From NCBI GenBank assembly GCA_022616435.1, contig JAKEET010000045.1:18013-82012 (forward strand): a stretch of DNA of 64,000 nucleotides, written 5' to 3'. This document shows positions 8,978 through 25,585 of this stretch, piece after piece. The first letter of the stretch is position 1. The number at the start of each line of letters is the position of its first letter. Made by a program: the position numbers and the translations under genes. This DNA comes from Gemmataceae bacterium (GTDB lineage Bacteria > Planctomycetota > Planctomycetia > Gemmatales > Gemmataceae). The notes beneath the pieces are model-generated. The model saw nothing but the letters and a program-made list of their open reading frames with translations. It did not search any database and was not told where the DNA came from.

Positions 8978-9052
8978 TCGCGGCGTGAGCGCGACGTGGT
9001 GTTCGAGCAGTTACTAACCCGCACACACGTCGGGCTCACGCCGCGACGCTCG
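8978..9052. repeat. REP-like palindrome family B (GGCGAGCGTCGCGGCGTGAGC … GGGCTCACGCCGCGACGCTCGCC). Related copies occur at 12537-12631 and ~47690-47760
   Basis: Inverted repeat with 21-bp arms and ~40-nt loop in the divergent intergenic region. It overlaps the 5' end of the longest ORF for the next cytochrome, which argues for a later start. Confidence 0.6.
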
Positions 9053-9070
9053 CCGTTGCTTGAGGTGAAC

Positions 9071-10495
9071 GTGCATCGGCGCCTCTTCGTACTGGGTTCC
9101 ATCCTGCTGTTCCTCGCCGCGGCGTGGGCGCGCCGCGGTCCGTCGGCTCAGGAGCCGTTGCCGCGCCGGGTTCCGACCCCTGTACGTTCCAACTTCGAGC
9201 TGCTTGGGGCCGGCTCGTGCGCCGCGCAGGCGTGCCATAACGCCGACCCTTTGAACGGGATGCAAGGCGGGGAATACCGGATCGCCTACGAGCGCGCTTT
9301 CTCGGGAGAGGCGCCGCACGTCAAGGACAAGCATGCTCAGGCGTTCGCAGTGCTTTTTGACGAACGGTCGCAGCGCATCGTTCGCCAGTGGAAAGGGCTG
9401 TCGGCAAGAGACACGGTTCATCCGGAGCGCGAAGCGTTGTGCCTTCGCTGCCACGTGCATCCGGACTACGATCGGCTTCCCGTTCGGTTCGCCGACGGCG
9501 TGGCCCAGTTTCGCCTGGAGGACGGCGTCAGTTGCGAGGCCTGTCACGGTCCGGCACAGCGCTGGCTGGCGGCGCACTTCCGGCCGGGATGGAAGAACCT
9601 GTCCTCCGCGCGCCGCGCCGAGTTCGGCATGACCGACACGCGTTCGTTGGCCGGGCGCGTGCGCATCTGCCTCGATTGTCACGGCGGCCGCCCGGACGCG
9701 CAAGTCGATCACGATCTCATCGCGGCGGGTCATCCGTGGTTGAAGTTCGAAATGGGCGATTATCACGCGCTCTGGCACAAGCATTGGGACGGCGCCAAGG
9801 ACAAGAAGCCCGGCACGGACCGGCGGGGCCGCGCCGACTTCGAGGCCCGCTTGTGGCTGGTGGGCCAGGTCGCATCCGCCAAGGCCGCGCTCGACTTGCT
9901 GGCGGCAAGGGCGCGCGATCCGAAACGTCCGTGGCCGGAATTCGCCGAGCAGGACTGCTTCGCGTGTCACCATGACTTGAGCGCGAAAGCAGGGCCGCCT
10001 GCCGAAGACGCCAGGGCCGGGGCGCCCGCCTGGAACGCGTGGTACACGGCCATGCTGCCCGCCGCGGTCGGCGAAGATGCCGCGAAGCTCGGCAAGCCGC
10101 TTGGCGAGCTGCGAACGCTGATGGCATCGTGGCGGCCGGATCGAGAGCAAGTCGCGGCACATGCTCGGGAGGCCGCCGCCCAGCTCCAGGCGTGGATCGC
10201 GGCGTGGGAACTCCACGAACCCGGGCCGCTCGCCGTCGACGCGATGACGCGACAACTGCTGGCCATGGGCGACGCACGCGCGTCACAGTCCTGGACGACG
10301 GCCGCCCAGTGGCAGCGCGCCCTATCGGGAATGGAGCGGGCGCGTCAGGATATGAAGGTGCCGGCGCCGGCCTGGTCCGTGCGGCTGCCGCTCCTGGAAA
10401 AGGCCCTGCGGCTGCCGCCCGGTTTCGCGAGTCCGCACGGCTACGATGCCGCGGCAGTCCGCGAGATCATCCGGTCCATGCACGAATCCAAGTAG
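9071..10495 (+). CDS. pentaheme cytochrome c, paralog 1 (signal peptide). The start is uncertain: GTG 9071 or 9065, and the longest ORF starts at GTG 8996
   Basis: CAAQACH, CLRCH, CEACH, CLDCH and CFACHH heme motifs. VHRRLFVLGSILLFLAAAWA is signal-like. GAGG precedes the GTG at 9071. It is paralogous to 10504..12072 and 22342..23721 (shared AAGHP[WP]L and DC[FY]ACHHDL blocks). Confidence 0.75.
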   Translation: MHRRLFVLGSILLFLAAAWARRGPSAQEPLPRRVPTPVRSNFELLGAGSCAAQACHNADPLNGMQGGEYRIAYERAFSGEAPHVKDKHAQAFAVLFDERSQRIVRQWKGLSARDTVHPEREALCLRCHVHPDYDRLPVRFADGVAQFRLEDGVSCEACHGPAQRWLAAHFRPGWKNLSSARRAEFGMTDTRSLAGRVRICLDCHGGRPDAQVDHDLIAAGHPWLKFEMGDYHALWHKHWDGAKDKKPGTDRRGRADFEARLWLVGQVASAKAALDLLAARARDPKRPWPEFAEQDCFACHHDLSAKAGPPAEDARAGAPAWNAWYTAMLPAAVGEDAAKLGKPLGELRTLMASWRPDREQVAAHAREAAAQLQAWIAAWELHEPGPLAVDAMTRQLLAMGDARASQSWTTAAQWQRALSGMERARQDMKVPAPAWSVRLPLLEKALRLPPGFASPHGYDAAAVREIIRSMHESK

Positions 10496-10503: not shown

Positions 10504-12072
10504 ATGTCCGCGAAGCTCATTCTCGCCGGCGCGGGTCTCACGTGCCTCGCGGCTTGCTTCTGGCAACCCTCGGCTCTCGAGCGCGCCGGCGCGGGAGACG
10601 GCAAACCGGCGCTCACCTACTTCGGCAACAGCACCTGCGCCGAATGCCACAACGAGGAGAAGATCCCGCCGAAGAAGAAGGTCGATTTCTCCATGCGCAC
10701 GGAGATGCACACCTGGTATCAACTCGACAAGCACAAGGACGCGATGAAGGTGCTGCTCGAGAAGCGCGGGACCCAGATCGCGGCACGCCTGGGCATCAAG
10801 GGCAAGCTGACCGACGGCAAGACCTGGAACAAGGACTGGGATCAGTGCGTGAGCTGCCACGGCGTGGTCGTGCCGCCGGGGGCCAAGCTCGACGCCTCGT
10901 TCGAGGACCACGAGGAACGCATCAGGAGCGGCGTGAGCTGCGTGTTCTGCCACGGCGCCGACGCGCGCTGGGTCGAGAAGCACGCCACCGACATCCTGGG
11001 CACGTGGGCCAAGTCCACGCGCGCGGAAAAGGAAGCCAAGCACGGCCTCGTCGATCTCTGGGACCCCGTGAAGCGCGCCGCCCTGTGCAGCGAATGCCAC
11101 ATCGGCAATGCGCGCAAGGGCAAGGTGGTCACGCACGAAATGTACGCCGCCGGCCATCCGCCCCTGCCCGGCTTCGAGATCCTGGCGTTCAGCGAGGCCA
11201 TGCCGCGGCACTGGGAGACCTGGTCCGAGAAGCTGGCGCGGCTCCCGAAAAACAAGGCGCTGTACGAACATGCCTATGAAACCAAGGCCGAGGCGTTCGA
11301 CGGCGAGCAGGTCCGGCTTCTGAACGTGTCGTCCGTGGTGGCCTTGCGGGCCGCGATGCAATTGGTCCACGATCTGGCCCGCCGGGACATCGACCATCCG
11401 AACGCCAAGGCGCCCGCCTGGCCGGCGCCCGCATGGCCGGAGCTGGCCGCGTTCGATTGCTACGCGTGCCATCACGACCTCAAGTCCGACAGTTGGCGGC
11501 ACCTGCGGACGACCGCGGGCCGGCCCGGCCGCCCGCACCTGCGTCCCTGGCCCAAGGTCTTGCCGGCCAGCGCCGCACGGCAAGCCGCCCAGCACGGCGC
11601 GGCTCCGTTGGCGGACGAATATCACAAACGCCTGAAGGACATGGGCGACGTGTTCGATCAAGCGCCGTTCGGCGACCCGCGCGCCGTCGCCGACAAGGCG
11701 GGCGCCGTGGTGACGTGGTGCGACCAGATGCTGAGCGCGTTGCCGAAGGACCAGGCCGCCGGTCGCAACGTGCTGATGGCCCTCTTGAACCGTCCGAAGG
11801 GGGAACTGCTCGATTTCGATTCGGCCCGGCAAATCGCCTGGGGCGCTCAAACCCTGCTGCCGGTCGTGGTCCCGGAGGCCGGCAAGCGTGCTGAAGTCAA
11901 AGTGCAGCTCGAGGCGCTGCGGCAGCAACTGATGTTGCAGCTTCCCAGAGGGCAAGTGCGCATCGCGGAGGACTTCTTGCCGCAGGTGTTGAAGCGCATC
12001 AGCACGTATGATCCGCGGCAGTTCCAGCAGACCATGGAAGCGCTCGCGGCGGAGGTCTTCCGCGACCGCTAG
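10504..12072 (+). CDS. pentaheme cytochrome c, paralog 2 (signal peptide)
   Basis: MSAKLILAGAGLTCLAACF signal. CAECH, CVSCH, CVFCH, CSECH and CYACHH motifs. A strong SD (AGGGGG) sits 6 nt before the ATG at 10504. The longer 677-aa ORF overlaps the previous gene and is rejected. Confidence 0.85.
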   Translation: MSAKLILAGAGLTCLAACFWQPSALERAGAGDGKPALTYFGNSTCAECHNEEKIPPKKKVDFSMRTEMHTWYQLDKHKDAMKVLLEKRGTQIAARLGIKGKLTDGKTWNKDWDQCVSCHGVVVPPGAKLDASFEDHEERIRSGVSCVFCHGADARWVEKHATDILGTWAKSTRAEKEAKHGLVDLWDPVKRAALCSECHIGNARKGKVVTHEMYAAGHPPLPGFEILAFSEAMPRHWETWSEKLARLPKNKALYEHAYETKAEAFDGEQVRLLNVSSVVALRAAMQLVHDLARRDIDHPNAKAPAWPAPAWPELAAFDCYACHHDLKSDSWRHLRTTAGRPGRPHLRPWPKVLPASAARQAAQHGAAPLADEYHKRLKDMGDVFDQAPFGDPRAVADKAGAVVTWCDQMLSALPKDQAAGRNVLMALLNRPKGELLDFDSARQIAWGAQTLLPVVVPEAGKRAEVKVQLEALRQQLMLQLPRGQVRIAEDFLPQVLKRISTYDPRQFQQTMEALAAEVFRDR

Positions 12073-12639: not shown

Positions 12640-14559
12640 CTATCGTTCCGGGTTCCGCGGGAGCTTCAAATACGGCGGCCGGATGCCGCTGATGAAGAAC
12701 CGATCGACGCGGATCGCCGCCGGCGCGGAGTAGCCCTTGATGCCGAAGAACGTGACGACATCGTCCTGATCGACGCCGTCGCCGGAGACGCCGAACCCGC
12801 CCACGAGGATCGACTTCTTGTAGACGCCGGAGCTGCCGGGGAAGAAGACGACGCCGTTCTGGTTTTCCGGAATCCCCGGATCGCGGAAGTTCGTCCCGGG
12901 ATTGAACGCGTCAAAGCCCAGCACCGACGTGTGCGCCGCGACCGGCTGGATCGCGCCGACTTGCAGCCCGGTGATGCGGTTGGCGCCGGGATCGTTGAGG
13001 ATCGAGAACGGGCCCGGCGGCGCGCCGCTGACGCTGATCGGAAAGCGCGGATGCGACACGTACCGGAACGTGCGCGCCGTGAAGGCCACGCCCTTGGGCA
13101 ACAACTGATCCTCCGGCTGGATCGCGGCCGGGTCGTTGTAGTACGCCAGGTTGCGGGCCTTGGCGACGGCGACGTCGATCGAGAACACGGTCGCGTCCGG
13201 CATGCGATACAGGCCGAGCACCTCGCCCGTGGAATCGGTGACCGCGAAGACCATGCGGGTCCGTTCGTCCCTGGGCAGACGGATCTGGGCGCGGACGCGT
13301 TGCGCTTCTTGAATCGCCTGGCGGATGATGCGGCGCACCTCGGCGGCTTTGATGCCGGCCCCGGCATGCGGCCTGACCAGAAAGCCGGAGGGGACCGTTG
13401 CGCCGGCCTTGAACGGATCGCCCGCGGAATCAACCGGCTGGAAGCTCGCGCCTGCGAGCGTCCCCAGGCCGATGCCGAAATTGGCCTTGGCGAACGCGAC
13501 CAGGTTGGCGGGCCCGCGGTCGCCGCCGGGGCCGATCACGTCCAGCGTGATGCCGACCAGGTCGATGCGGCCATGGGGAATCGTGAAGCCCCGGAGCGCC
13601 GGGATGCCGCCGAGCGCGCCGACGGGGAAGCCGGCCGCCTTGCTGCCTCCCGCGGCGGCCAGGCCGATGAACTCGGCTTCGAGCGTGCGGTCCGGCCTGG
13701 TCGGATCGAAATCGGCGCTGAGCTTCGAGTTTTCTTCGCTGGCGAAGCCGGTGTCGCCGGGGAAGAACACGCCGATGCCGCCGACCAGCGTCCCGTGCTT
13801 GTAGATCGGGATGCCGCCGGGCAAGGTGGCGATGCCGCGCGATTGGTAGTGGTTGAGCGCCGACAGCCGATCGGCGGCGCTGAGGATGTACTCGCCGTAC
13901 GACAGGGGCGGGTCGATCTCCTTGCCGGCGGGGATGAATGCGGGGTTCACGTTGAAGCGGCTCGGCAGGGGCACGTCGTCGGCTGTGCCCTTCACGTGGT
14001 CGGCGCCGGGGTGCAGGATGCTGTCGCGGTTGCTGTGCTCGATGGCGAACAGGTCCACCTGCGGCGTGAACGCGACGTTCGGCGGGAAGTGGCCCTTGAC
14101 GCCGATGGGCGCGACGAAGCCGGGCCCGCGTTCCAGCGGATCGGTGAGGTTGGGGTTCGACTTGACTTCGCGTTCGGTGATGGTGGTCTGGCTGATGAAC
14201 TGGATGGTGCGCGAAGTCAAGGGAACGGTGTCATTGGCGAAGAACGCCGCGGTGCGCGCCTTGGCGATGGCGCCGTCGATGGCGAAGGCCTTGGTGTCCA
14301 GATCGGCCAGCAGCGCCGCGGAGACGCCGCCCTCCGTCAACACGCCCAGCAGATTGCCGCCGCGATCGACGATGGCGATGATGGCGTCGTCGCTGGCCGT
14401 CGCGACCGCGGCGCGGGCCAGCAGCCGGAACACGTTCGCCTCGGTCAGCACCGGCGGCGTCAGCGCGTTCTGGCTGGAAACCAGCGCCGGCACCGCACGA
14501 TCCTCGAGGGATTCGACGCTCAGCGGCGATCGACGGCGCGGACTCATGCTGGACGACAT
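12640..14559 (-). CDS. secreted protein with two GlcG/HbpS-like (DUF336, heme-binding) domains. The N-terminus carries an SVESLEDRAVPA motif instead of a hydrophobic signal peptide
   Basis: Two copies of the ...AIAKARTAAFF... / ...AVAKARNLAYYN... signature typical of GlcG/HbpS. The ATG at 14557-14559 is preceded by AGGAAGAGGAG, and the track ORF starts at the upstream TTG 14580. The stop is 17 bp downstream of the BBP7-like gene, so they are probably co-transcribed. Confidence 0.55.
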   Translation of the reverse strand: MSSSMSPRRRSPLSVESLEDRAVPALVSSQNALTPPVLTEANVFRLLARAAVATASDDAIIAIVDRGGNLLGVLTEGGVSAALLADLDTKAFAIDGAIAKARTAAFFANDTVPLTSRTIQFISQTTITEREVKSNPNLTDPLERGPGFVAPIGVKGHFPPNVAFTPQVDLFAIEHSNRDSILHPGADHVKGTADDVPLPSRFNVNPAFIPAGKEIDPPLSYGEYILSAADRLSALNHYQSRGIATLPGGIPIYKHGTLVGGIGVFFPGDTGFASEENSKLSADFDPTRPDRTLEAEFIGLAAAGGSKAAGFPVGALGGIPALRGFTIPHGRIDLVGITLDVIGPGGDRGPANLVAFAKANFGIGLGTLAGASFQPVDSAGDPFKAGATVPSGFLVRPHAGAGIKAAEVRRIIRQAIQEAQRVRAQIRLPRDERTRMVFAVTDSTGEVLGLYRMPDATVFSIDVAVAKARNLAYYNDPAAIQPEDQLLPKGVAFTARTFRYVSHPRFPISVSGAPPGPFSILNDPGANRITGLQVGAIQPVAAHTSVLGFDAFNPGTNFRDPGIPENQNGVVFFPGSSGVYKKSILVGGFGVSGDGVDQDDVVTFFGIKGYSAPAAIRVDRFFISGIRPPYLKLPRNPER

Positions 14560-14576
14560 CAAGTCACTCCTCTTCC

Positions 14577-15818
14577 TCAATACCGAAACTCAAACCCCCA
14601 GATCATCCCCTGCGCCCAGTAGTCCGAAGTCCGGAACGCCATGACCGGCTGCCGCGGCGTCGCCGGGCCGCCGAACGAGGCGCTCGTCGGGATCAGGTTG
14701 GGGTTCAGATTGCGGTCGATCTGCTCGCCGGGGCGGACCACGTCGCTCCAGTAGAGGAACGTGTACCCGCCGAACACGGTCAGCCGTTCGCTGATCCGCA
14801 GGCCGAGCTTGGCGCTCACCTCGGGAACCACGGCGAACGAGTCACGCGAGCACCTGCCGGAGTTCGTCGCCAGCGCGAACAACCCCGCCGGCTCGTCGGT
14901 CACCGGCGTCGTATCGATGATCGTTCGGCCGCGAACCAGGATTGTCTCGCGGACGTTGCCGAGCGCGACCTTCGACATCACCTGGAAGGTGAAACGCTTG
15001 TAGTGCAGGTCGATGCCGGCGCCCACCTGGCCGCCGAAGAAGTCGTTGTCCGCCTCGAAACGATCGAGCACGCTGACGCGGCGGCCGGCCAGCGGCCCCG
15101 CGGCCGGCGCCAGGGCCGTGCTTTCGGCGATGCTCAGTTCCTCGTCCAGGTCGAGATAGCGCAGACCGGCGAACACCGTCACATGGCAGCGTTCGCCATT
15201 GCGGAGGACGTGCTGCAGATTCAGCTCGGCCCCTTGCAGGAAACTGTCGGCGTCCACGGCGATGCTGCCGATGGCCGTGCCGGGGAAGCTCACCAGCGAG
15301 CTGTCTTCGCGCCTGTTGACGGCGTCGAAGAACGGCCGCGCCAGGATCGGGCTGCCGGGCGACGCCCGCGTGGGGCCGACGTCGCGGGCGCCGAGCAGGA
15401 AATAACTAGCGGCCAGCGACCACTCGTCGGCGGTCCCGAGCGCCATGACCACCGTGAATCGGCCGCCGTGGCGTTCCTCGAAATCGATGGCGTCGCCGTA
15501 CAGGATGCGCGTGAACTGCCTGCCCACCGCGCCTGGTCGCGGGTCCGACGTCGGCCCGGTCGTCAAGAGCGGCGGGATGCGGTCGTTCTTCGTGAACATC
15601 AAGAGGTAGTCGCCGAGGAAGCGCCAGCGGTGTTGGGCGGGTTCTTCCGCATGGATCACCGCCGCGGCTTCGTCCGTGGAAGGCGCGGCAGCTTCCGACG
15701 TTTCTTCCAGATTGCGACCCCAGGGCGGAACCAGCGCCGACTCCTGCGCGCAGACCTGACGCGGCTGCCACAGGAGCAGCACGAGAAGCAGCCAGAAACG
15801 CCGCCGGCCTTGACGCAT
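14577..15818 (-). CDS. outer-membrane β-barrel protein, BBP7-like (Planctomycete family)
   Basis: MRQGRRRFWLLLVLLLWQPRQVCAQE signal with cat at 15816-15818. Alternating amphipathic β-strands and a C-terminal ...GFEFRY. It is paralogous to 25602..26813, which ends ...QFNLRY. The 466-aa ORF has an implausible N-extension. Confidence 0.6.
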   Translation of the reverse strand: MRQGRRRFWLLLVLLLWQPRQVCAQESALVPPWGRNLEETSEAAAPSTDEAAAVIHAEEPAQHRWRFLGDYLLMFTKNDRIPPLLTTGPTSDPRPGAVGRQFTRILYGDAIDFEERHGGRFTVVMALGTADEWSLAASYFLLGARDVGPTRASPGSPILARPFFDAVNRREDSSLVSFPGTAIGSIAVDADSFLQGAELNLQHVLRNGERCHVTVFAGLRYLDLDEELSIAESTALAPAAGPLAGRRVSVLDRFEADNDFFGGQVGAGIDLHYKRFTFQVMSKVALGNVRETILVRGRTIIDTTPVTDEPAGLFALATNSGRCSRDSFAVVPEVSAKLGLRISERLTVFGGYTFLYWSDVVRPGEQIDRNLNPNLIPTSASFGGPATPRQPVMAFRTSDYWAQGMIWGFEFRY

Positions 15819-16180
15819 GACCGTCGTTCTACGATGGCGAGTTTGGGCAAAGGGTTCCCGACCTGCGGGTTGTATCGGCAGGCGGAAACCGATGCCTGAA
15901 GATGATCGCATTGCGTTCGAAATGCGTTGCGCGATGACGACACACGAGGCGCAACGCATTTTTCCGTGGTATGACACAACCTATTGCTGAGAACCATCTT
16001 AATTCGTCGCGCCGCGAAGTGAGCGCGGCGCGACGCATTTCTCGAGGCGCCTGGACTCCCGGTGCGACGTTATCCAGATTGCCCAGATTGTGAGATCGGC
16101 ACATTCGGGAGATTCGTCAAGGAATCCTTCGGCGGGCGACGATACCTGGAGAGGACGGGAAGTCTTGTCACAGGGCAGCG

Positions 16181-18217
16181 ATGGTGCGCATGGGCGGCTG
16201 CGGGAACAGATCGCGCCGGAACCGATCGCCGTGGATCGCCGGGCTCGGCCTGAGCATCTGCTTGGCCGGCGGGTGGTGCATCGGCCGCGCCCAACCTACC
16301 GACCTGCCGCCGTCCGACCGGCGGCACTCGACCCATCTCGAGGACACAGCCACTGCTCGGGCGGCCGCCGCGCCGGACTCCGAACCGGGCAACGATCGGA
16401 AAACCCCCGAGGAAGCTCCTGCGCCGGCATCGGCCCATAACAATCCGACATTCGGCTACGTGGAAGAAGAGTCCGAAAGCGCCCCGCCCGAAAGCGCCCC
16501 GCCCGAAGCGCCGCAGGTCGAGCCGATCGCCGCCCCGTTCCGCACGCCCATCGACGCCCCGCTCGGCTTTACCGGCCGGTCGGGCGTGCTGCCGCGCGAA
16601 GGGCAGACCGATCCGCGCTTCGTGCCGATGGAGGATCGCTGGCGCATCGGCTTCCCGGAGTGGGACCGCTACGGCAAGGGCCATCCGCCCGTGGACGATT
16701 ATCCCTACGTCACCGGCCGCCGCATCGACCCGTACAATCAAAACGTCCTCAAGGGCGACTTCCCGATCCTCGGCCAGAACACGTTCCTGACGATCACCGG
16801 CACGAGCCGGTCGATCTTCGAGTACCGCGAAGTCCCCATCCCGACGACGCCGTTCGAAACCACGGTCAATCCGGACAGCTTTGCCTTCTTCGGCCGGCCG
16901 AATCAGTTCGCGTACCTGCACTTCTTCGCCTTGTCGCTGGACCTGTTTCACGGCGACGCCGCCTTTCGGCCGGTCGACTGGCGCGTCAAGGTGACGCCGC
17001 TCTTCAACGTCAACTATCTCGCCGGGCAGGAAGTGGCGGTGGTGAGCCCCAACGTCCGCCGCGGCGTCGATCGCGGCCGAAGCTGGTTTGCCCTGGAAGA
17101 GTGGTTCATCGAGACCAAGCTCGCCGACCTGGGCCCCAACTACGACTTCGTCTCGATCCGGGCCGGCGCGCAGCCGTTCCTCAGCGATTTCCGCGGTTTT
17201 GTTTTCAGCGACATCAACCGCGGCGTCCGCCTGTTCGGCAACCACAACTCGAACCGGCAGCAGTTCAACGTCGCCTTCTTCGATCAGCTCGAAAAGGACA
17301 CGAACTCCGGCCTGAACACGTTCGACAGCCGCCAGCAGCGCGTCCTCATCGCCAACTACTTCGTGCAGGACTTCATCTTCCCCGGCTACACGGCCCAGTG
17401 GAGCATGCACTACAACCACGACGATCCGTCGTTCCACTTCGACAAGAACGATTTTCTGGTGCGGCCCGATCCGGTCGGCGTGTTCCAGCCGCACGGGCTG
17501 GACGTGGTCTACCTGGGCTGGACCGGCGACGGCCACATCAACCGCATCAACATCAATCACGCGTTCTACTGGGCGTTCGGCCGCGATTCGCTGAACCCGA
17601 TCGCCAACCAGGGGCAGGACATCAGCGCCCAGATGGGGGCGATCGAATTGTCGTACGACCGCGATTGGATTCGTTTTCGGACGTCGTTCCTGTGGTCGTC
17701 CGGCGACGACGACCCGCGCAACAGCCACGCCACCGGGTTCGACGGCATCTTCGACAACCCGAACTTCGCCGGCGGCGAGTTCAGCTACTGGCAGCGGCAG
17801 GCGGTGCGGCTGTTCGGCGTGAACCTGGTGAATCGCGAGAGCATTTTTCCGAATCTGCGCGCGAGCAAGATCGAAGGCCAGAGCAACTTCGTGAACCCCG
17901 GCCTGTTCCTGGTCAACGTCGGCGCCGACTTCGAGATCACGCCGAAGCTGCGGCTGATCACCAACGCGAACCTGTTGTGGTTCGAGAACACCGAGGTGTT
18001 GAAGACCTTCGTCTTCCAGGAACGCATCGAGCGGCACATCGGCGCCGATTTGAGCGCGGGCGTGGAGTACCGGCCGTTCCTCAACAACAACGTGATCTGC
18101 AACTTCGGTTTTTCGAGCCTGCTTCCCGGACAGGGCTTCAACGACCTCTACGACAACATCCGCGCCGAACGCGGCCCGCTGGTGGCGGCGTTCGTGGATT
18201 TAATTTTGACGTATTGA
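16181..18217 (+). CDS. large outer-membrane β-barrel protein (putative porin), immediately upstream of and translationally coupled to a multiheme cytochrome
   Basis: Signal peptide. Many amphipathic aromatic-rich strands (FLTITGTSRSIFEYREV; VLIANYFVQDFIFPGYTAQWSMHY; LDVVYLGWTGDGHINRININHAFYWAFG; GLFLVNVGADFEITPKLRLITNANLLWFE) and a C-terminal aromatic residue. The stop TGA 18215-18217 overlaps the ATG 18217-18219 of the next gene. Confidence 0.6.
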   Translation: MVRMGGCGNRSRRNRSPWIAGLGLSICLAGGWCIGRAQPTDLPPSDRRHSTHLEDTATARAAAAPDSEPGNDRKTPEEAPAPASAHNNPTFGYVEEESESAPPESAPPEAPQVEPIAAPFRTPIDAPLGFTGRSGVLPREGQTDPRFVPMEDRWRIGFPEWDRYGKGHPPVDDYPYVTGRRIDPYNQNVLKGDFPILGQNTFLTITGTSRSIFEYREVPIPTTPFETTVNPDSFAFFGRPNQFAYLHFFALSLDLFHGDAAFRPVDWRVKVTPLFNVNYLAGQEVAVVSPNVRRGVDRGRSWFALEEWFIETKLADLGPNYDFVSIRAGAQPFLSDFRGFVFSDINRGVRLFGNHNSNRQQFNVAFFDQLEKDTNSGLNTFDSRQQRVLIANYFVQDFIFPGYTAQWSMHYNHDDPSFHFDKNDFLVRPDPVGVFQPHGLDVVYLGWTGDGHINRININHAFYWAFGRDSLNPIANQGQDISAQMGAIELSYDRDWIRFRTSFLWSSGDDDPRNSHATGFDGIFDNPNFAGGEFSYWQRQAVRLFGVNLVNRESIFPNLRASKIEGQSNFVNPGLFLVNVGADFEITPKLRLITNANLLWFENTEVLKTFVFQERIERHIGADLSAGVEYRPFLNNNVICNFGFSSLLPGQGFNDLYDNIRAERGPLVAAFVDLILTY

Positions 18218-21200
18218 TGGAGATCGTCGTGAACGGGAATGGATTCCATCACCGGGAATTGCCGCGCCGCCTCGGCGCGTTCGCCGCCCTCGCCGTCGTC
18301 GTCGCCGCCACGGTGTTCGCGTGCCACCGGCGGCCGGACTGGTTCGCACAGAGTCACGGTCAAGAACCCGGCGCTACGTACGGCGAGGTCAACCTGCTAT
18401 TCCAATCCAAGGAGCAAGCCTTCCGCAAGAGCGTCGGCTGCATCCAGTGCCACGAAGGCGCCCACGATCCGCACTACAAGGAAACGCTGAACCTGGGCTG
18501 CTGCGATTGCCACGGCGGCGATCCCACAACGACGGTCAAGGAATACGCCCACGTGGCGCCGCGCTTCCGCGATGCGTGGAAAAACTCCGGCAACCCCGTC
18601 CGCTCGTACACGCTGCTCAATCACGAAGCGCCCGAGTTCATCCGCTTCGTCAACCCCGGCGACTTGCGCGTCGCCCACATCAGTTGCGGCACGGCCGGCT
18701 GCCACGGCGCCGAGGTGATGCAGAACAAGATGAGCATGATGACCCACGGCTGCATGCTCTGGGGCGCCGCCCTCTACAACAACGGCGCCTTTCCGCTGAA
18801 GCAGGCCCGCTACGGCGAGAGCTACAGCATCAACGGCGTGCCGCAGCGCCTGCAAACCTGGCCGCCGCCCACCGCGGAAGAGATCACCAAGAAAGGCGTC
18901 GTCCCCTATCTCGATCCCCTGCCCCGCTTCGAGATGTCGCAGCCCGGCAACATCCTCCGCTTCTTCGAGCGCGGCGGCCGCTTCTTCCCCGAGATCGGCA
19001 TCCCCGAACGCCTCGAGGAATCCGGCAAGCCGCGCACCCGCCTCAGCATTCGCGGCCTGGGGACCCTCAACCGCACCGACCCGACTTTCGTCGGCCTGCA
19101 GCGCACCCGGCTGCTCGATCCGACGCTCAACTTCCTCGGGACCAACGATCACGCCGGCGACTATCGCTCCAGCGGCTGCACCGCCTGTCACATGGTCTAC
19201 GCGAATGATCGCTCGCCGATCCACTCCGGGCCGTACGCGAAGTACGGCCACCGCGGCACGTCGGCGAGCACCGATCCGACGATTCCCAGGGACGAGCCGG
19301 GCCATCCGATCGAGCACCGGTTCACCCGCGCCATCCCGACGAGCCAGTGCATCGTCTGCCACGTCCACCCCGGCACCAGCGTCATGAACAGCTACCTCGG
19401 CTACATGTGGTGGGACGAGGAAACCGACGGCCATCTCATGTATCCGAAGAAGCAGAAGTACCCCACGGCCGAGGAGTTCGTGCAGGCGGCGCTCAACAAC
19501 CCCGACGAGGCGTCGGCCCGTGGGCTGTGGTCCGACCCGGCGTTTCTCGAACGTGTGTCGGAGCTGAACCCGCACCTGAGGCACACGCAGTTCGCGGATT
19601 TCAACGGCCACGGCTGGGTGTTCCGCGCCGTGTTCAAGAAGGACCGCCGCGGGAACTTCCTCGATCACCAGGGCAAGATCATTCCGCACGTGTCAACCCA
19701 GCACTTGATGACGGCCATGAAGGTCCCGGAATTCGCGAAGGAGAAGTACCGCCAGCCGGAAACCCCCTCACCCCCAGCCCCTCTCCCCCGCGGCGGTGGC
19801 GGGGGGCGCAACGAGGTCGTCTCCGGCCGGGCCACTCCCGTCAACCGCGACGGCATCCCGGTCCACCTGATGGACATCCATCTGGAGCGCGGCATGCACT
19901 GCGTCGATTGCCATTTCGTGCAGGACGTTCACGGCAACGGCAAGCTGTACCAGGAAGTGCGGGCCGCCATCGAAATCCAGTGCGTCGATTGCCACGGCAC
20001 GATCACGAAGTATGGCGCGTTGCGCACCAGCGGGCCGGCCGCGGAAAAGGGTCCTGACACCTTTTTCGGGCGCGACCTGACGGCGCTGCGGACGCCGTTC
20101 GGCAAACGCCGCTTCGAGCAGCGCGGCGCCAGGATCATCCAGAATTCGATGGTCGAGAAGGACCTGAGCTGGGAAGTCCCGCAAGTGAAGGACGTGATCA
20201 CGCCCGGTCATCCGCGGTACAACCAGCTCGGCCATCTTGCCAAGACCGTGCGCTTCGAGTCGCAGGACAAGAACCACTTCGCCTGGGGAAGTGTGCCCGG
20301 CGGCGACGAGTGCAAGGTCGCCCACGCCAACCAGCGGATGAGCTGCATCGCCTGCCACTCGGCGTGGAACCCGAGCTGCTTCGGCTGCCATCTGCCGCAG
20401 CGGGCCAACAAGAAGATGCCCGGCCTGCACAACGAAGGCGAGGTGACCCGCAACTACGTCGCCTACAACTTCCAGACCCTGCGCGACGACGTCTTCATGC
20501 TGGCCAGGGACGGCGACGTCACCGGCAACCGCATCGGCCCGGCCCGGTCCTCGTGCGCCATCCACGTCGGCTCGTACACCGGCAACCGCGACTCCATCTA
20601 CGTCCAGCAGCAGACCATCTCAGCCGACGGCCTCAGCGGCATCGCCTTCAGCACCAACGTCCCGCACACCGTCCGCGGCGGGCCGGCGCGCGGCAAGGAC
20701 GGCCGCTATCTCCACCCGGAGGCGTACATCGGCGGCCGCGGCGAGACCAAGCAGTGCAGCGATTGCCACGTTTCGAAGAACGAGGACAACAACGCCATCA
20801 TGGCCCAGCTCCTGATGCACGGCACCGGTTACGTGAATTTCATGGGCCGCTATTGCTGGGTGGCGGCCAAGGACCACGGACTTTTCGGCGTCGCCGTCAC
20901 CGAGCTGGACGAGCCGCAGGCGGTGATCGGCAGCTATCTCCATCGCCTGGCGTTCCCGGACTTCTTCAAGAAGCATCACGACCGCGGCTACAAGCTCGAC
21001 AAGGCCCACGAGCACCCCGGCATCGACATCGGCGACAAGTTGCGGCGCCCGCTCAAGAAGGCCAACGTGCTGCAGGTGCAGCCGCGCGGCGAGTTCTTGG
21101 TCGCGGCGTGCGGCGAGTTCGGGGTGCGGGTGTTCGACATCGCCTTCATCGACAACAAGTCGTTCTCGGAGCGGATCTTGACGGCCCCGGTGTCGCCGCT

Positions 21201-22212
21201 GGGCCAGCAATTCTACGTGAAGACGGCGTTCGCCGCCGCGGTGGCGGCGCCCTGCACGCCCGCCCCCGATCCGACGCGCAACCAGAACCCGAAGAACAAG
21301 GAGCCGCAAGTTCATCCGCTCTTCGGATACCTGTACGTGGCCGACCTGCACGAAGGCTTGATCCTGATCGGCGCCGGCACGACCATCGACGGCAACCCGA
21401 CGAACAACTTCCTGCGCCGCGAGGTGACCTTCAACCCCGACGGCCTGCTCAACGGCGCTCGCAACGTGACCATCGTGGGCAACTACGCCTACGTGTGCTG
21501 CGACGCAGGCCTGGTGGTCGTCAGCATCGACAATCCGAAGAACCCGTACGTCACCGGCGTCGTCGGCGCGCCGTTCATCCGGGGCGCGCGGGCCGTGCAG
21601 GCCCAGTTCCGCTACGCCTTCGTGTGCGACGGCGAAGGGGTGAAGGTGCTCGACATCACCGATCCGGCCAGGCCGGCGCCGGTCAGCGCCGTGCGGATTG
21701 CCGATGCCCGGAACATCTACCTGGCGCGCACCTATGCGTACGTCGCGGCCGGGCATCAAGGGTTGGTGATCCTCGACATCACGAAGCCGACGCGGCCGGC
21801 GCTCGACCAGGTGTACAACGCCGGCGGGCATCTGAATGACGTGAACGACGTGAAGCTCGGCATCACCTACGTCAGCGAGTTCGCGTACATCGCCGACGGC
21901 CACAACGGCCTGCGGGTGGTGCAGCTCACGTCGCCGGAGACGCCGGGCAACCAGGGCTTCAGTCCGCGGCCGACGCCGCACCTGGTCGCGACCTTCCCGA
22001 TCCCCGAAGGCGGGCACGCGCTGTCCGTGGGACGGGCGCTGGATCGCGACCGCGCCGTCGATGAAAGCGGCAATGCCATTGGGGTGTTCGGCCGGATCGG
22101 GGCGCGGGCCCTCAATTTCGACGAGCAGCGGAAAATGTACCTCCGCAACGGAAGCGTGTGGCGGGTAAGCGACGATCCGGCGGATGGGATGTATCGCCAT
22201 CAACAGAAATGA
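18217..22212 (+). CDS. giant multiheme cytochrome c (~10 hemes) with C-terminal LVIVD-repeat β-propeller domain
   Basis: N-terminal TM/signal (LGAFAALAVVVAATVFA). Heme motifs CIQCH, CCDCH, CTACH, CIVCH, CVDCH x2, CIACH, CFGCH and CSDCH, plus a CGTAGCH (CX4CH) site. The C-terminus has repeated YAYVCCDAGLVVVSIDNPKNP / YAFVCDGEGVKVLDITDPARP / YAYVAAGHQGLVILDITKPTRP / FAYIADGHNGLRVVQLTSPETP blocks typical of LVIVD repeats. The upstream 1850-aa track ORF beginning at 16660 is an out-of-frame extension and is rejected. Confidence 0.8.
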   Translation: MEIVVNGNGFHHRELPRRLGAFAALAVVVAATVFACHRRPDWFAQSHGQEPGATYGEVNLLFQSKEQAFRKSVGCIQCHEGAHDPHYKETLNLGCCDCHGGDPTTTVKEYAHVAPRFRDAWKNSGNPVRSYTLLNHEAPEFIRFVNPGDLRVAHISCGTAGCHGAEVMQNKMSMMTHGCMLWGAALYNNGAFPLKQARYGESYSINGVPQRLQTWPPPTAEEITKKGVVPYLDPLPRFEMSQPGNILRFFERGGRFFPEIGIPERLEESGKPRTRLSIRGLGTLNRTDPTFVGLQRTRLLDPTLNFLGTNDHAGDYRSSGCTACHMVYANDRSPIHSGPYAKYGHRGTSASTDPTIPRDEPGHPIEHRFTRAIPTSQCIVCHVHPGTSVMNSYLGYMWWDEETDGHLMYPKKQKYPTAEEFVQAALNNPDEASARGLWSDPAFLERVSELNPHLRHTQFADFNGHGWVFRAVFKKDRRGNFLDHQGKIIPHVSTQHLMTAMKVPEFAKEKYRQPETPSPPAPLPRGGGGGRNEVVSGRATPVNRDGIPVHLMDIHLERGMHCVDCHFVQDVHGNGKLYQEVRAAIEIQCVDCHGTITKYGALRTSGPAAEKGPDTFFGRDLTALRTPFGKRRFEQRGARIIQNSMVEKDLSWEVPQVKDVITPGHPRYNQLGHLAKTVRFESQDKNHFAWGSVPGGDECKVAHANQRMSCIACHSAWNPSCFGCHLPQRANKKMPGLHNEGEVTRNYVAYNFQTLRDDVFMLARDGDVTGNRIGPARSSCAIHVGSYTGNRDSIYVQQQTISADGLSGIAFSTNVPHTVRGGPARGKDGRYLHPEAYIGGRGETKQCSDCHVSKNEDNNAIMAQLLMHGTGYVNFMGRYCWVAAKDHGLFGVAVTELDEPQAVIGSYLHRLAFPDFFKKHHDRGYKLDKAHEHPGIDIGDKLRRPLKKANVLQVQPRGEFLVAACGEFGVRVFDIAFIDNKSFSERILTAPVSPLGQQFYVKTAFAAAVAAPCTPAPDPTRNQNPKNKEPQVHPLFGYLYVADLHEGLILIGAGTTIDGNPTNNFLRREVTFNPDGLLNGARNVTIVGNYAYVCCDAGLVVVSIDNPKNPYVTGVVGAPFIRGARAVQAQFRYAFVCDGEGVKVLDITDPARPAPVSAVRIADARNIYLARTYAYVAAGHQGLVILDITKPTRPALDQVYNAGGHLNDVNDVKLGITYVSEFAYIADGHNGLRVVQLTSPETPGNQGFSPRPTPHLVATFPIPEGGHALSVGRALDRDRAVDESGNAIGVFGRIGARALNFDEQRKMYLRNGSVWRVSDDPADGMYRHQQK

Positions 22213-22247
22213 TGAGACGTTTTAGGCCGGGTTGATGACGTTTAGCC

Positions 22248-22341: not shown

Positions 22342-23721
22342 CTATTCGCGCAGGCGGCGAACGATCGAGCGCGGGTCCACATCGCCGCGCGGCGTGGCGT
22401 ACCCGGGCGGCAGGGCGCGCACATCCAGCAACGACTTCAAACGCTCGCCAAGGGCCGTATCCTTCGCCGTCTGGTTCAGCGCGACGAATGCCAGGTAAAG
22501 CTGCTCCGCCTCATCCCAGCTCGTGACGTTGTCCGACATCAGCAGGCCCTGGATTTTCCCAAGCGCGAACGGGCCGCCCCCATCCCAAGCGTTCACCGGG
22601 GCGTGCAACCGCCGCAACTCGACGAGGGCGGCGTCGATCTTCTCCACCGCCACATCCCGCGCCGGCCGCGGCTTCGCCATGATCCGCTTCAGCTCATCGA
22701 GCGCCGGCGTCCCTGTCGCGCCGGCAGCGCCGGCAAGCCAGCGCGGCATCGAGAAGTACCACGTCCCCCACGCCAGCGCGCCCCGGCGACCGAGTGGTCG
22801 CCGCCAGGTTGGCTCCTGCAAATCGTGGTGGCAGGCGGTGCAATCGTATTCCGCGAACTCCGGCCACACCGCAGTCGTGCGGTGCTTCAACAACTCAAGC
22901 GCGGCCGCCGCGCTCACGACCTGGCCGGCCGCCCACAGCTGGTTCTCGTTGCGCGGCCTGGGCTTCCAGTGCGGCGGCAGATTGGCGACGAACGCGCTGG
23001 CCTCGAAGGCCAGCCGTGGATGGCCGGCGGCGATCAGGTCGTGATTGACGTCGCGCACCGGCGCCCCGTTGCCAGGAGGCGCGCCGACGTGACAGCCGGC
23101 GCAAGCCTTCACGAGCGCCGCGGGGTCGCCGAGCGGAACCAGGCCGTGCTCGCGGAATTTTTCCTCGGCCGATTTCGTCTGCCATTCCTTCGTTAGATGC
23201 GCGTCGAGCCAGCGCGGCGCCGTGCCGTGACAGGCTTCGCAGCCGACGCCGGCGGCGCGTTCACGGCGGATCGAGGCGGCGTCCACCGAATCCTGGATCG
23301 GTCCGGACGCGGCCGGTTGCGTGTGGCAGCTCAGACATGCCGCGGCTTCGTGGGCCCCGCGCGGCAAGCCGAGCCGCCTGGCGATCTCCTGGGCGAGCGG
23401 CTCATGCAGCGTCCGGTAGGCGCGGGTGTGCGGATCGTGCTGGACCCACAACGTGTATTCCATCTGCCAGGAAGTCGCGCGCTCGATGGCGTCGAGGCTG
23501 CCGTGACAGGATCGGCCGGCGCACGATGCGGTCCCGGCGAAGGGACTTGACGATGTCGCCGGCGTGAGCCGCGGCGGCGCACCATCGTCCGCCTTCGGCG
23601 CCGCCACGGGCGGCCGGCGCCACCAGACGACGCCCACGATCACAAGGACCATGGCGCCGACGACCACGAGGCCGCGTGATGTCAACATGAGGACTCCGAC
23701 GTCGTTTCGCCAGGCTGGCAT
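22342..23721 (-). CDS. pentaheme cytochrome c, paralog 3 (TM/signal anchored). An alternative start is at M12 (23688)
   Basis: CAGRSCH, CLSCH, CEACH, CAGCH and CTACHH motifs. It shares the AAGHPRL and DCTACHHDL blocks with the two + strand paralogs. The sense-strand ORFs here are Arg/Ala junk. Confidence 0.8.
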   Translation of the reverse strand: MPAWRNDVGVLMLTSRGLVVVGAMVLVIVGVVWWRRPPVAAPKADDGAPPRLTPATSSSPFAGTASCAGRSCHGSLDAIERATSWQMEYTLWVQHDPHTRAYRTLHEPLAQEIARRLGLPRGAHEAAACLSCHTQPAASGPIQDSVDAASIRRERAAGVGCEACHGTAPRWLDAHLTKEWQTKSAEEKFREHGLVPLGDPAALVKACAGCHVGAPPGNGAPVRDVNHDLIAAGHPRLAFEASAFVANLPPHWKPRPRNENQLWAAGQVVSAAAALELLKHRTTAVWPEFAEYDCTACHHDLQEPTWRRPLGRRGALAWGTWYFSMPRWLAGAAGATGTPALDELKRIMAKPRPARDVAVEKIDAALVELRRLHAPVNAWDGGGPFALGKIQGLLMSDNVTSWDEAEQLYLAFVALNQTAKDTALGERLKSLLDVRALPPGYATPRGDVDPRSIVRRLRE

Positions 23722-23758
23722 TCAGTTTTCGAATGCTCCTGGATATCATGTTGGCTAT

Positions 23759-25585
23759 ATGAGTTCTGGCAATGCGAGCGCCGCTTGGGAAGTCGATATC
23801 TTCGAGAACTTCAAGTCGGTGTTCAACGTGTCGTTCGTCGGCACCCTGGAGCTGGGGCGGCAGGATCGCGGCGAGCCGGCCCCGTACGGCGTCAAGGCCG
23901 AAGGCAAGCACACGCGGCTGGTGATCGCCTATCTGGAAGAGGACCGGGTGCCGCGCCGGTACCTGCGCATCGATCCGCAGCCGAACGGGACCGTCACGAT
24001 CACCAACCTGAGTCCGCGCGTCCCGATCCGGATGGAACAGGGGCCGCTGGTCAAGCCGGACGGGCAGCTGACGCTGCCGCCGCCGTTGACGCTGCTGATC
24101 GAGCACCGGGCGGTGCGCGTGCAGCCGTCGTCGGCGTCGGCGGCCAACCTGCAATCGCTCCCCGATTCGACGATGGCGCCGTTCCAGCACGTGTCGCTGT
24201 CGGGCAACATTTCCAGCATCATCGGCAAGGGCGAGGAAAACGTCACGGGCGTGGTCCGCTGGCTGCAGGCGGCGATGGGCGTCTTGCAAAGCGCCGCCGG
24301 CTCCTCGGATTTCTTCCAGCGCGCCGCCCGCGCCGTCGTCGACCTGGTCGGCCTCGACAGTTGCCGCGTGCTGCTGCGCGAGCAAGGGGCCTGGAGAATG
24401 CAGGCGCTGCAGACCGCCGAGGGGGTGCCGCGGCTGGGCGACGCCCAGGGCAGCCGCCACATCCTCGACAAGATCCTCCAGGAGAAACGGACCTTCTGGG
24501 AGCTGCCGAGTGCGAACTTCACCGCCAGCCTGATGGGGGTCAAGGCCCTGGTGGCGGCGCCGATCCTCAGTCCCCAGGGCGACGTGATCGGCGTCCTGTA
24601 CGGCGACCGCTCGAGCAAGTCCGACGGCCTGCGGCCGATCACGCACATCGAAGCCTTGCTGGTCGAGCTGCTGGCGAGCGGCGTCGCCGCCGGGCTGGCC
24701 CGCGTCGAGCAGGAACAGGCGGCGCTGCGCGCCCAGGTGACGTTTCAGCAATATTTCACGCCGCGGCTGTCGCGGCGGCTGGCCGACAACCCGGAGCTGC
24801 TCGACCCGCGCGACGAGGAAGTCAGCGTCTTGTTCTGCGACATCCGCGCGTTCAGCCGCATCACCGAGCGCCTGGGCACCAAGCGGACGGTCAACTGGAT
24901 CGGCGACGTGCTGGGCGTGCTCTCGGAGTGCGTGATGCGCGAAGAAGGCACGCTGGTCGATTACGTCGGCGACGAATTGATGGCGATCTGGGGGGCGCCC
25001 GACGAGCAGCCGGACCACGCGCGGCGCGCGTGCCGGGCGGGCCTGGACATGCTGGCTCAGCTCCCGGCCCTCAACCAGCGCTGGCAGACGGAGCTGAGCG
25101 AGCCGATCCGCGTCGGCATCGGCATCAACAGCGGCGTGGCGTCGGTGGGCAACATCGGCTCGCACATCAAGTTCAAGTACGGTCCGCGCGGCACCATCGT
25201 CAACGTCGCCAGCCGCGTGCAAGGGGCCAACAAGTTCTGGAAGACGTCGCTCCTGGTCACCGGATCGACGCACGCCCAGCTCGACGGCGCGTTCGGCTCG
25301 CGCCGGCTCGGCGCCGTGCGCGTCGTGAACATCGCCGAGCCGGTGACGCTGCACGAAGTCGTCCCGCCCGGCCTGGCGCCGTGGCCGAAGCTGGAGCGCG
25401 ATTACGAAGCCGCGCTGGCGCACTTCGAAAAGCAAGAGTTCCGCGAGACGGTGCGCGTCCTGGGCAACCTGCTTCCCGATTATCCCGACGACGGGCCGAC
25501 CTTCGTGCTGATGGCCCGGGCCGTGCAGTGCCTCGTCGATGAGCCGGAGACCTTCGACCCGGTGTGGAGCCTGCCGGGGAAGTGA
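23759..25585 (+). CDS. class III adenylate/guanylate cyclase with N-terminal FHA-like and GAF-like regions
   Basis: The C-terminal catalytic domain has EVSVLFCDIRAFSRITERLG...LVDYVGDELMAIWGAP...IRVGIGINSGVASVGNIGS. A GAF-like block reads ALVAAPILSPQGDVIGVLYGDRS. The ATG at 23759 is preceded by a poor SD, and the track ORF begins upstream at 23564 and overlaps the divergent cytochrome. Confidence 0.75.
   Translation: MSSGNASAAWEVDIFENFKSVFNVSFVGTLELGRQDRGEPAPYGVKAEGKHTRLVIAYLEEDRVPRRYLRIDPQPNGTVTITNLSPRVPIRMEQGPLVKPDGQLTLPPPLTLLIEHRAVRVQPSSASAANLQSLPDSTMAPFQHVSLSGNISSIIGKGEENVTGVVRWLQAAMGVLQSAAGSSDFFQRAARAVVDLVGLDSCRVLLREQGAWRMQALQTAEGVPRLGDAQGSRHILDKILQEKRTFWELPSANFTASLMGVKALVAAPILSPQGDVIGVLYGDRSSKSDGLRPITHIEALLVELLASGVAAGLARVEQEQAALRAQVTFQQYFTPRLSRRLADNPELLDPRDEEVSVLFCDIRAFSRITERLGTKRTVNWIGDVLGVLSECVMREEGTLVDYVGDELMAIWGAPDEQPDHARRACRAGLDMLAQLPALNQRWQTELSEPIRVGIGINSGVASVGNIGSHIKFKYGPRGTIVNVASRVQGANKFWKTSLLVTGSTHAQLDGAFGSRRLGAVRVVNIAEPVTLHEVVPPGLAPWPKLERDYEAALAHFEKQEFRETVRVLGNLLPDYPDDGPTFVLMARAVQCLVDEPETFDPVWSLPGK

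Follow-up and report, generated by a model that had tools for sequence, protein, structure and literature searches.

What do an outer-membrane β-barrel and a very large ten-haem cytochrome do together when their genes stand side by side in a planctomycete? The question was raised by two neighbouring genes, here called A (the barrel) and B (the cytochrome), in a stretch of 64,000 nucleotides (nt) from a Gemmataceae bacterium (GenBank assembly GCA_022616435.1, contig JAKEET010000045.1, positions 18,013 to 82,012 of the forward strand), which we refer to as the window and in whose own numbering coordinates are given. The original prediction, made from the letters of the window alone, had read the pair as a translationally coupled porin–cytochrome conduit of the MtrB/MtrA or Geobacter type, used to pass electrons through the outer membrane. 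Our analysis points elsewhere, to a reading that we give an even chance of being right: A and B would form the outer-membrane end of a multi-component chain that carries electrons from the cytoplasm to the envelope, with A serving as a channel or anchor and not as a sheath. A chain of this kind is described so far only bioinformatically, under the name PCC4, a putative porin–cytochrome cluster that, by the available text of its report, is a genome prediction never tested (He, Barco, Emerson & Roden 2017, PMC5566968).

The barrel, the cytochrome and their conservation

Open reading frames (ORFs), coding signal, Pfam and AlphaFold agreed on the two genes as originally drawn, a barrel protein of 678 amino acids (aa) and a ten-haem LVIVD cytochrome of 1331 aa. 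A (16181..18217, + strand; ATG start) begins with a signal peptide (residues 1-37) and a Pro/Glu-rich linker (38-126), followed by a conserved N-terminal region (127-199; nt 16559-16777) and by the barrel itself (200-678), in which a conserved loop of 68 residues (L7, 507-574) lies between strands 13 and 14. GC content at third codon positions was 0.88 for A and 0.90 for B in a window of 66% GC, values typical of genuine genes here. The AlphaFold model, computed from an alignment of 46 sequences, placed 18 strands over residues 200-678 (not fewer than 16, in keeping with the larger kind of barrel originally envisaged), with predicted local distance difference test (pLDDT) values of 74-94 in most barrel blocks, short periplasmic turns, long external loops and a C-terminus ending in LTY. 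On this model, A is an integral outer-membrane β-barrel. The conserved N-terminal stretch of about 75 residues holds many invariant aromatic and charged residues and was modelled with pLDDT <50.

The fold of A is of the AlgE/OprD channel type, with AlgE as the best structural match (13% identity; 8-13% over AlgE and OprD overall). A rough assignment of strand residues to the inside or outside of the barrel placed about 20 conserved charged residues inward (8 Arg, 10 Asp/Glu), and these charges, together with the conserved L7, fit a specific channel or a plugged lumen. Searches of A against Pfam and NCBIfam at E ≤ 1 gave no match (neither MtrB/PioB nor OprD nor Alginate_exp, PF13372), a search of its alignment profile against PDB sequences gave none either, and its sequence holds no haem motif. 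In a set of 5.8 billion proteins A has at least 7,466 relatives; the best 120 share 59-80% identity with it and none of them is named. Short N- and C-terminal pieces of A, of B and of the third conserved gene introduced below (U) matched no Pfam model at E ≤ 10.

B (18217..22212, + strand; 1331 aa, or 1327 aa from GTG 18229) is a secreted decahaem c-type cytochrome with an LVIVD β-propeller. Its signal (about residues 1-49) is followed by two haem modules (58-505 and 546-900) and by the propeller and tail (about 940-1331; nt 21034-22209). Nine CxxCH motifs lie at residues 75, 95, 321, 378, 562, 589, 710, 721 and 847, and the tenth haem site, third in order, is the single non-canonical CX4CH that had been predicted (C157-x4-C162-H163; nt 18685-18705). 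All haem sites were invariant in 46 homologues; across Planctomycetota and Acidobacteriota, the two phyla in which the pair was found (89 sequences), nine were invariant and the first was at least 90% conserved. Among 49 full-length homologues from the fetched loci, the third site read Cx4CH in 24 and CxxCH in 23, with neither form detected in 2; judged from this distribution, the Cx4CH form is a variant, by lineage, of a site that is otherwise ordinary, a natural two-residue insertion within the haem-binding motif. B also has 12 invariant His outside the motifs, which suffice for bis-His ligation of all ten haems, and a scan of the protein for CxxCK or another catalytic signature found none.

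Of the hidden Markov model (HMM) searches, the one for LVIVD found its family in B (PF08309; E = 1.4e-21, 76 bits against a cut-off of 20.2, in three stretches), and those for MtrB/PioB and DmsE/MtrA found neither. An AlphaFold model of residues 58-1257, built from the 89-sequence alignment of both phyla, gave a propeller with confidence (block-mean pLDDT mostly >80), its blades numbering roughly seven on a count of about 25 strands within what was modelled. Foldseek comparison of this model with the PDB yielded propellers of generic kinds only (WD40, cd1 nitrite reductase, BamB, PorZ) because the haem domain was unreliably modelled, and the alignment profile matched only propellers of the YncE type among PDB sequences (E = 0.1). 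The N-termini of B homologues carry a Sec-type signal, often with an A-x-G/Q-like site after it; a conserved lipobox is absent from the homologues of both phyla. We had considered B as a lipoprotein on account of the VFAC of the window protein, and rejected this when the VFAC proved to be unconserved. A second candidate, that B was built from nearby C554-like units or by its own duplication, was dropped after BLAST of B with the neighbouring cytochromes, and of its two haem modules with each other, showed no significant similarity.

B, too, belongs to a large family. Among 8,000 scored candidates 7,991 were relatives (a lower bound), the top 120 at 66-100% identity, and a second search, started from an acidobacterial homologue, again gave thousands of relatives (also a lower bound). 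The haem domain matched 612 of 1.84 billion cluster representatives at E ≤ 1e-30, with full-length members of 1090-1700 aa, by which the family is, as far as these sequences tell, a tight one with a single architecture. Literature searches for LVIVD with haem, and for Gemmataceae with multihaem proteins, returned nothing.

The junction of the two genes bears on the claim that they are made together. The stop codon of A (TGA, 18215-18217) and the ATG at 18217-18219 do overlap by one base (18217), as had been stated. The identical protein at NCBI (P0121, from a Gemmataceae metagenome-assembled genome (MAG); L0Y71_05075) starts four codons downstream, at GTG 18229, which has a GGAG six bases upstream where the ATG has none, and in relatives the gap between A and B is usually tens to hundreds of bases. 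Because of this alternative start and the wider gaps, translational coupling through the overlap is neither conserved nor certain; A and B are co-oriented and tightly packed, and their co-transcription is likely. P0121, which is the B of the same MAG, was present in the protein collection at 100% identity, and the best match of the adjacent A reached only 79%; A may have been omitted from the deposited annotation or flagged in it. Shadow ORFs of 600-1800 codons, antisense or extended upstream, overlap the genuine genes (for example 12073-14622 on the + strand, 16070-18037 on the - strand and 16660-18216 on the + strand), as is expected at 66% GC. An ORF of 1850 aa (16660-22212) consists of B and the frame left open upstream of it, and the status of a gene is thus not to be read from ORF length alone.

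To follow the pair through other genomes, the alignment of A was scanned against one genome per GTDB species, which confirmed at least 575 relatives in 600 stretches. The hosts of the best 80 loci were Gemmataceae, Pirellulaceae, Planctomycetaceae and Isosphaeraceae (including the complete genome of Tundrisphaera sp. TA3) and, in the Acidobacteriota, Pyrinomonadaceae and Blastocatellia; the cultured carriers were Gemmata algarum JC673 and Aporhodopirellula aestuarii ICT_H3.1. B stood directly downstream of A in 44 of the 64 A-seeded loci having at least 1.5 kb of downstream sequence, in both phyla, so that the gene pair which the original prediction expected in relatives is indeed conserved. 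The gene upstream of A on the opposite strand, U (12640..14580, - strand; 646 aa), encodes a protein, predicted to be secreted, that has two domains of the HbpS/GlcG (DUF336) kind. It was found upstream of A in 44 of the 59 loci with enough flank, shares 42-60% identity with its relatives and also occurs in loci without B; besides B and U no partner was conserved. By these comparisons A, B and U are a conserved core of Planctomycetota and Acidobacteriota, with A carried by at least 575 species genomes.

One of the loci (L073) bears the label "uncultured Candidatus Kuenenia sp."; its U-A-B locus tracks those of L038 (Gemmataceae MAG) and L042 (Planctomycetaceae UBA969). Because its match coordinates and identities lie near those of L038 and L042, the record suggests a mis-binned or mislabelled contig and not an anammox occurrence.

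An inner-membrane module linked to the pair

The window encodes more than the outer-membrane end of a chain. According to the available text of its report, PCC4 comprises, besides a porin and periplasmic cytochromes that have 4, 5 and 10 haems, an inner-membrane protein with five transmembrane (TM) segments and SGxxG and WX3HX13H motifs, likened there to the transmembrane domain of ferric reductases and NOX; in subgroup II, which includes Planctomycetes, an iron–sulfur (Fe-S) gene lies upstream of the gene for the inner-membrane protein (PMC5566968). A three-gene operon on the minus strand of the window (4100-8747) has the corresponding inner-membrane parts. Its first gene (6519..8747, - strand) encodes a cytoplasmic protein with cyclic nucleotide monophosphate (cNMP)-binding domain and 4Fe-4S dicluster; the second, 15 nt on (5619..6503, - strand), a five-TM protein and putative di-haem b carrier, with WX3HX13H in TM3 and TM5 (at residues 92 and 266), SGxxG in TM4 (at 133) and five hydrophobic segments; and the third, after a further 49 nt (4100..5569, - strand), a decahaem cytochrome with 10 CxxCH and an N-terminal membrane anchor.

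Three C554-like cytochromes, paralogues of one another, accompany this operon and the pair. The first (8996..10495, + strand) has 4 CxxCH and 1 Cx4CH, the second (10504..12072, + strand) has 5 CxxCH, and the third (22342..23721, - strand; convergent with B) again has 4 CxxCH and 1 Cx4CH; the first and third each carry one site of the form SCxxxxCH. For the second gene, ATG 10504, 9 nt past the previous stop, is a likelier start than GTG 10039. The encoded signal peptide has a lipobox-like LAAC at its end, by which the protein may be a lipoprotein cytochrome; such a Cys is absent from the homologue in locus L072. Homologues of the third adjoin A and B in L010, L033, L034, L084 and L086. With 4100-12072 and 22342-23721 the window holds most of the relay set, and it has no NuoEF-like gene.

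Set against the PCC4 description, as far as the text of its report is available, the gene content of the window matches item for item, with A compared to the PCC4 porin by description only: cytochromes with 4 (8996, plus the 1 Cx4CH), 5 (10504) and 10 (4100) CxxCH are present, as they are in L072, the protein of 5619-6503 matches the inner-membrane signature of PCC3/PCC4, the Fe-S gene (6519-8747) lies upstream of it, and a barrel gene is nearby. There are differences from the same text (PMC5566968). The Fe-S protein of the window matches Fer4 models other than the paper's PF13247; a decahaem-propeller protein of 1300 aa, a tandem HbpS/DUF336 protein and a NuoEF-like protein do not figure in the paper's available text; and a quinone partner is assumed there for the inner-membrane protein, where NuoEF-like neighbours in the loci described here suggest NAD(P)H. 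No follow-up of PCC4 was found in the searchable literature. The view that the system was uncharacterised is borne out; the closest described entity is PCC4.

In other genomes the core is joined to this module. A Planctomycetaceae MAG (L072) has A, B, the inner-membrane protein and the 10-haem, 4+1-haem and 5-haem cytochromes on one strand with gaps of 3-57 nt, and the six genes are, by this spacing, one operon. An acidobacterial locus (L077) has the Fe-S protein, the inner-membrane protein and the decahaem cytochrome adjoining U, A and B, and further loci hold subsets of the gene set in differing orders. As an independent test, only the alignment of the anchored decahaem cytochrome, and not A or B, was used to seed a scan of metagenomes, and the 12 loci with full 10-kb flanks were evaluated. 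The Fe-S gene, an ORF with the inner-membrane motifs and a C554-like cytochrome were each present in 12 of 12, B in 9 of 12 (50-52% identity, acidobacterial type) and A in 5 of 12; most of the remaining B loci end just past B, where A is expected.

The same scan showed where electrons may enter. In L113 a NuoE+NuoF-like fusion (2Fe-2S domain, FMN (flavin mononucleotide)/NADH site and 4Fe-4S domain) precedes the Fe-S gene, whose product has NuoG-like N-terminal clusters and three cNMP-binding stretches, and NuoEF-like genes were found in 28 decahaem-seeded loci. In the planctomycete loci L044, L053, L064 and L065, all without B, NuoEF and Fe-S genes lie directly beside U and A. Neighbourhoods that persist across two phyla despite reshuffling usually mark a single functional system, and an inner-membrane module within the gene set makes a trans-envelope redox role more plausible than could be known from the letters of the window. 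The expectation that electrons pass through the outer membrane is reasonable as far as context goes, which is conduit-like, with the inner-membrane module nearby; it does not hold as to type, which is neither Mtr nor Geobacter, and the pair is often unlinked.

This linkage also bears on a reading in which A and U have no part in redox chemistry, A being for example an AlgE-like polymer exporter, and both lie near cytochrome genes through shared regulation or chance. AlgE being the best structural match, the Wza-like Poly_export/SLBB gene that follows A in Gemmata algarum and the occurrence of A and U without B in about 20 loci would all suit such a reading; we nevertheless consider it very improbable, given that, across two phyla and in many arrangements of the genes, A adjoins either B or the NuoEF/Fe-S module, that all genes form a single operon in L072, and that the Pfam Alginate_exp model is not matched even at E = 1. 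A also differs from AlgE and from OprD/Occ channels in its extra conserved 75-residue N-terminal region, in matching neither Pfam family and in its context, which is redox and not alginate synthesis or amino-acid uptake.

Channel, conduit or enzyme

The chain that we propose would run as follows. Electrons from NAD(P)H would leave the cytoplasm through Fe-S proteins (the window has no NuoEF-like gene), cross the inner membrane through the di-haem-b-type protein and be relayed to B by the anchored decahaem and the pentahaem cytochromes. B would sit on the periplasmic side of A, perhaps bound at A's conserved 75-residue N-terminal region, and A would be a selective channel or a docking site, by which B receives a small or surface-bound redox substrate. 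As its barrel appears too narrow to enclose a cytochrome the way MtrB surrounds MtrA, A is most likely such a channel or dock. The propeller of B is a probable module for binding the substrate or a partner, and U would be an extracellular accessory. Candidate terminal substrates are Fe(III) or Mn oxides, humic quinones, an oxyanion and O2. We favour an outward direction for the electrons, since the oxidation of NADH runs downhill and flow inward across the membrane potential would run uphill.

A and B resemble MtrCAB, MtoAB and PioAB in that an outer-membrane barrel gene stands beside a ten-haem gene and in a presumed role in moving electrons between periplasm and exterior. The barrels of MtrB and PioB have 26 or more strands, in the range 26-28, and enclose MtrA, where A has 18. 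MtrA, of about 330 aa, has about 33 residues per haem by the available text of the PCC4 report (PMC5566968); B, with 1331 aa and about 90 residues per haem in its haem domain (133 over the whole protein), is four times its size with some three to four times the residues per haem. B did not match the DmsE/MtrA family TIGR03508, whose small decahaem members have about 300-350 aa and for which the neighbouring pentahaem cytochromes scored weakly (22-26 bits against a cut-off of 192 bits), and no MtrC-like lipoprotein was conserved with the A-B pair.

Conduits of the Geobacter type consist of a periplasmic multihaem cytochrome, an outer-membrane β-barrel and an outer-membrane redox lipoprotein (PMC6148476). 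A supplies the barrel; a redox lipoprotein is not conserved with the pair, and B has a Sec-type signal and no conserved lipobox. The Pcc and Ext systems (OmbB-OmaB-OmcB, ExtABCD, ExtHIJKLMNOPQS) share with the present one the logic of a barrel, a multihaem cytochrome (here a putatively periplasmic one) and a variable outer partner, which in Geobacter can be something other than a cytochrome, ExtH being a rhodanese-like lipoprotein. HMM similarities were weak and far below the cut-offs, namely of B to ExtM (72.8 bits against 800) and ExtS, alongside choice-of-anchor B, and of the protein of 22342-23721 to ExtN and ExtO. Geobacter moreover has a Rieske/cytochrome b complex where a five-TM di-haem-b-type protein and Fe-S/NuoEF-like proteins are found here, and the hosts here are aerobic heterotroph lineages. 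Assignment of the pair to the MtrB/MtrA or Geobacter type was given up on homology and structure, with the want of a family match, the 18 strands, the size of B and the absence of a conserved lipoprotein.

Several observations weigh against the channel-or-dock arrangement and the chain behind it. The inner-membrane module is not within 10 kb of the core in most planctomycete loci; in about 20 loci whose downstream sequence is long enough, A stands without B and is followed by assorted genes; and in 3 of 6 looked-up B loci (7 with the window) there is no A or U within 8-10 kb, the loci with A or U being the window, L084-L086 and also L081. The direction of flow is inferred solely from NuoEF-like genes, which the window lacks. 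The haem domain of B was poorly modelled (pLDDT <50 over long stretches). B could also lie outside the cell, given its LVIVD repeats, which are typical of surface proteins (Pfam description), and the dockerin and RTX modules of U relatives. Finally, ExtB, in a putative conduit of Geobacter (ExtABCD), is predicted to have 18 strands as well, and barrel size alone thus does not speak against a conduit (PMC6148476).

The last point favours an insulated conduit, in which a redox-bearing segment of B or U is threaded through A and protein-bound cofactors cross the outer membrane to or from a solid or polymeric substrate, as in MtrAB or the fused Cyc2. For such a conduit speak the barrel gene beside a decahaem gene in two phyla, the full chain from the inner membrane encoded nearby, the extracellular features of U, by which all three compartments are represented, and the N-terminal region and loop L7 of A, which could hold a partner in the lumen. 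Cyc2 of iron oxidisers, a 16-strand barrel with a fused monohaem domain, shows that a small barrel can be put to redox use in the outer membrane (PMC5566968). In Cyc2, however, the haem domain is fused, and A has no haem motif and its cytochrome is separate and very large. U has no Cys and a single conserved His and is not an obvious redox protein, B lacks a lipobox and is bulky with its 90 or more residues per haem, and A and B are often unlinked. We hold an insulated conduit to be distinctly unlikely.

The bulk of B points in another direction. Identity between planctomycete and acidobacterial B is about 50-57% over 1300 residues, and because of this strong conservation across phyla and its high number of residues per haem B resembles a multihaem enzyme or terminal module more than a fast-evolving surface wire. 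B might then be a periplasmic enzyme acting on a soluble substrate (an oxyanion, or a nitrogen or sulfur compound), with A as its uptake channel, U as an accessory that binds small molecules, and no redox chemistry at or beyond the outer membrane. The channel-type fold of A, the enzyme-like ratio of residues to haems, the very high conservation and the Sec-type signals of B all suit this, as does the sub-threshold likeness to ExtM, ExtN and ExtS, all proteins of the Geobacter selenite/tellurite cluster, a cluster that has a porin-like ExtI. The lack of a catalytic signature (no CxxCK), the 12 invariant His sufficient to ligate ten haems, the dockerin-, RTX- or FG-GAP-like modules of U relatives, which are of the surface-protein type, and the LVIVD repeats tell against it, and we rate it as rather unlikely. 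It overlaps largely with the channel-or-dock reading, the chief difference being where the substrate is met.

A further claim can be put forward, which we make tentatively and regard as possible rather than probable. A, B and U, the Fe-S and NuoEF-like proteins, the di-haem-b protein and the relay cytochromes would make up a redox machine of a new class, one that spans the envelope, is common among aerobic Planctomycetota and Acidobacteriota, exports electrons from NAD(P)H under cNMP control to a decahaem-propeller enzyme docked at an AlgE-like channel, and is mechanistically distinct from Mtr, Pcc and Cyc2. Its purpose might be the reductive mobilisation of Fe(III) or Mn oxides or humic quinones, or a controlled extracellular production of reactive oxygen. 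Almost all that is understood, to our knowledge, of redox chemistry outside the cell or at the outer membrane comes from Shewanella, Geobacter and a few iron oxidisers. In the present case a very strongly conserved pair occurs, with at least 575 species-level genomes, in aerobic heterotroph lineages that are not considered electroactive and that belong to two of the most abundant phyla of soil and freshwater. The A and B families have more than 7,400 relatives each (lower bounds), are unnamed and have no solved relative, and the barrel has no Pfam family. If A and B do end a chain fed by NAD(P)H at the outer membrane, the consequences could reach from the cycling of iron and manganese to the redox turnover of humic matter and the uptake of iron in soils and lakes. 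The gene sets described here are also the first independent support for the PCC4 proposal, and they extend it. Within the window, 4100-23721 is a compact candidate gene set for a nearly complete pathway, and Aporhodopirellula aestuarii is a cultured carrier of the core genes.

U, a second barrel and further genes

HbpS is an extracellular haem-binding sensor of redox stress in Streptomyces. U shares with HbpS, GlcG and the C-terminal domain of PduO two domains of the same family (PF03928; 60.4 bits against a cut-off of 25), in a tandem form with insertions. Its copies are marked by PDB hits at residues 417-481 and 569-609 (GlcG/EfgA and the PduO C-terminal domain), with one further copy N-terminal to these. 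Relatives of 600-830 aa keep the tandem form and have large insertions and variable N-terminal modules of the surface type. Like U itself, they open with a motif, R..(L/F/C)E.LE.R, in place of a classical hydrophobic signal (L006, L009, L012, L021, L023, L047, L055, L058 and others), which matched no Pfam model and looks like an export tag specific to planctomycetes. After the motif follow lineage-specific dockerin-, RTX-, DUF4214- or FG-GAP-like modules, of a kind usual in surface proteins that are exported. U lacks Cys, and its conserved His and Tyr number only one and two, respectively, so that a redox role is not evident; U was also considered as a haem protein, and with a single conserved His and no Cys it is at best a possible one.

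Immediately upstream of U, on the same strand, lies the gene of a BBP7-family outer-membrane barrel (14577..15977, - strand; 466 aa; PF07585, E = 4.7e-84), which overlaps U by 4 nt as listed in the window; in L084-L086 the spacing ranges from a 1-nt overlap to a 93-nt gap. The BBP7-to-U unit is divergent from the A-to-B unit in the window and in L084, L085, L086 and L001, which gives the locus of this Gemmataceae clade two outward-facing pairs of a barrel and a partner. Other lineages have long N-terminal modules on U and no BBP7 gene. A literature search on BBP7 found nothing.

Next to the redox genes of the window lies a gene for a GAF and adenylate/guanylate cyclase protein (23564..25585, + strand), which has homologues near A in L062-L064. 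Because the Fe-S protein carries cNMP-binding domains, this cyclase is tentatively taken as a regulatory partner, which would place the pathway under cNMP control. Scans for other regulatory elements were negative: Rfam gave no match in 3500-26000 at E ≤ 1, promoter and terminator matches in the locus were at or below chance, a Fur-box search allowing 3 mismatches found none, and the divergent intergenic region aligned from four relatives held no conserved motif.

In the acidobacterial locus L081, B is followed by a gene (14112-15539, + strand) whose product joins FHA and Yop-YscD_cpl domains to a cytochrome with seven haems. Further on come three small multihaem cytochromes, some with hits resembling domains II/IV of MtrC/MtrF, and then U.

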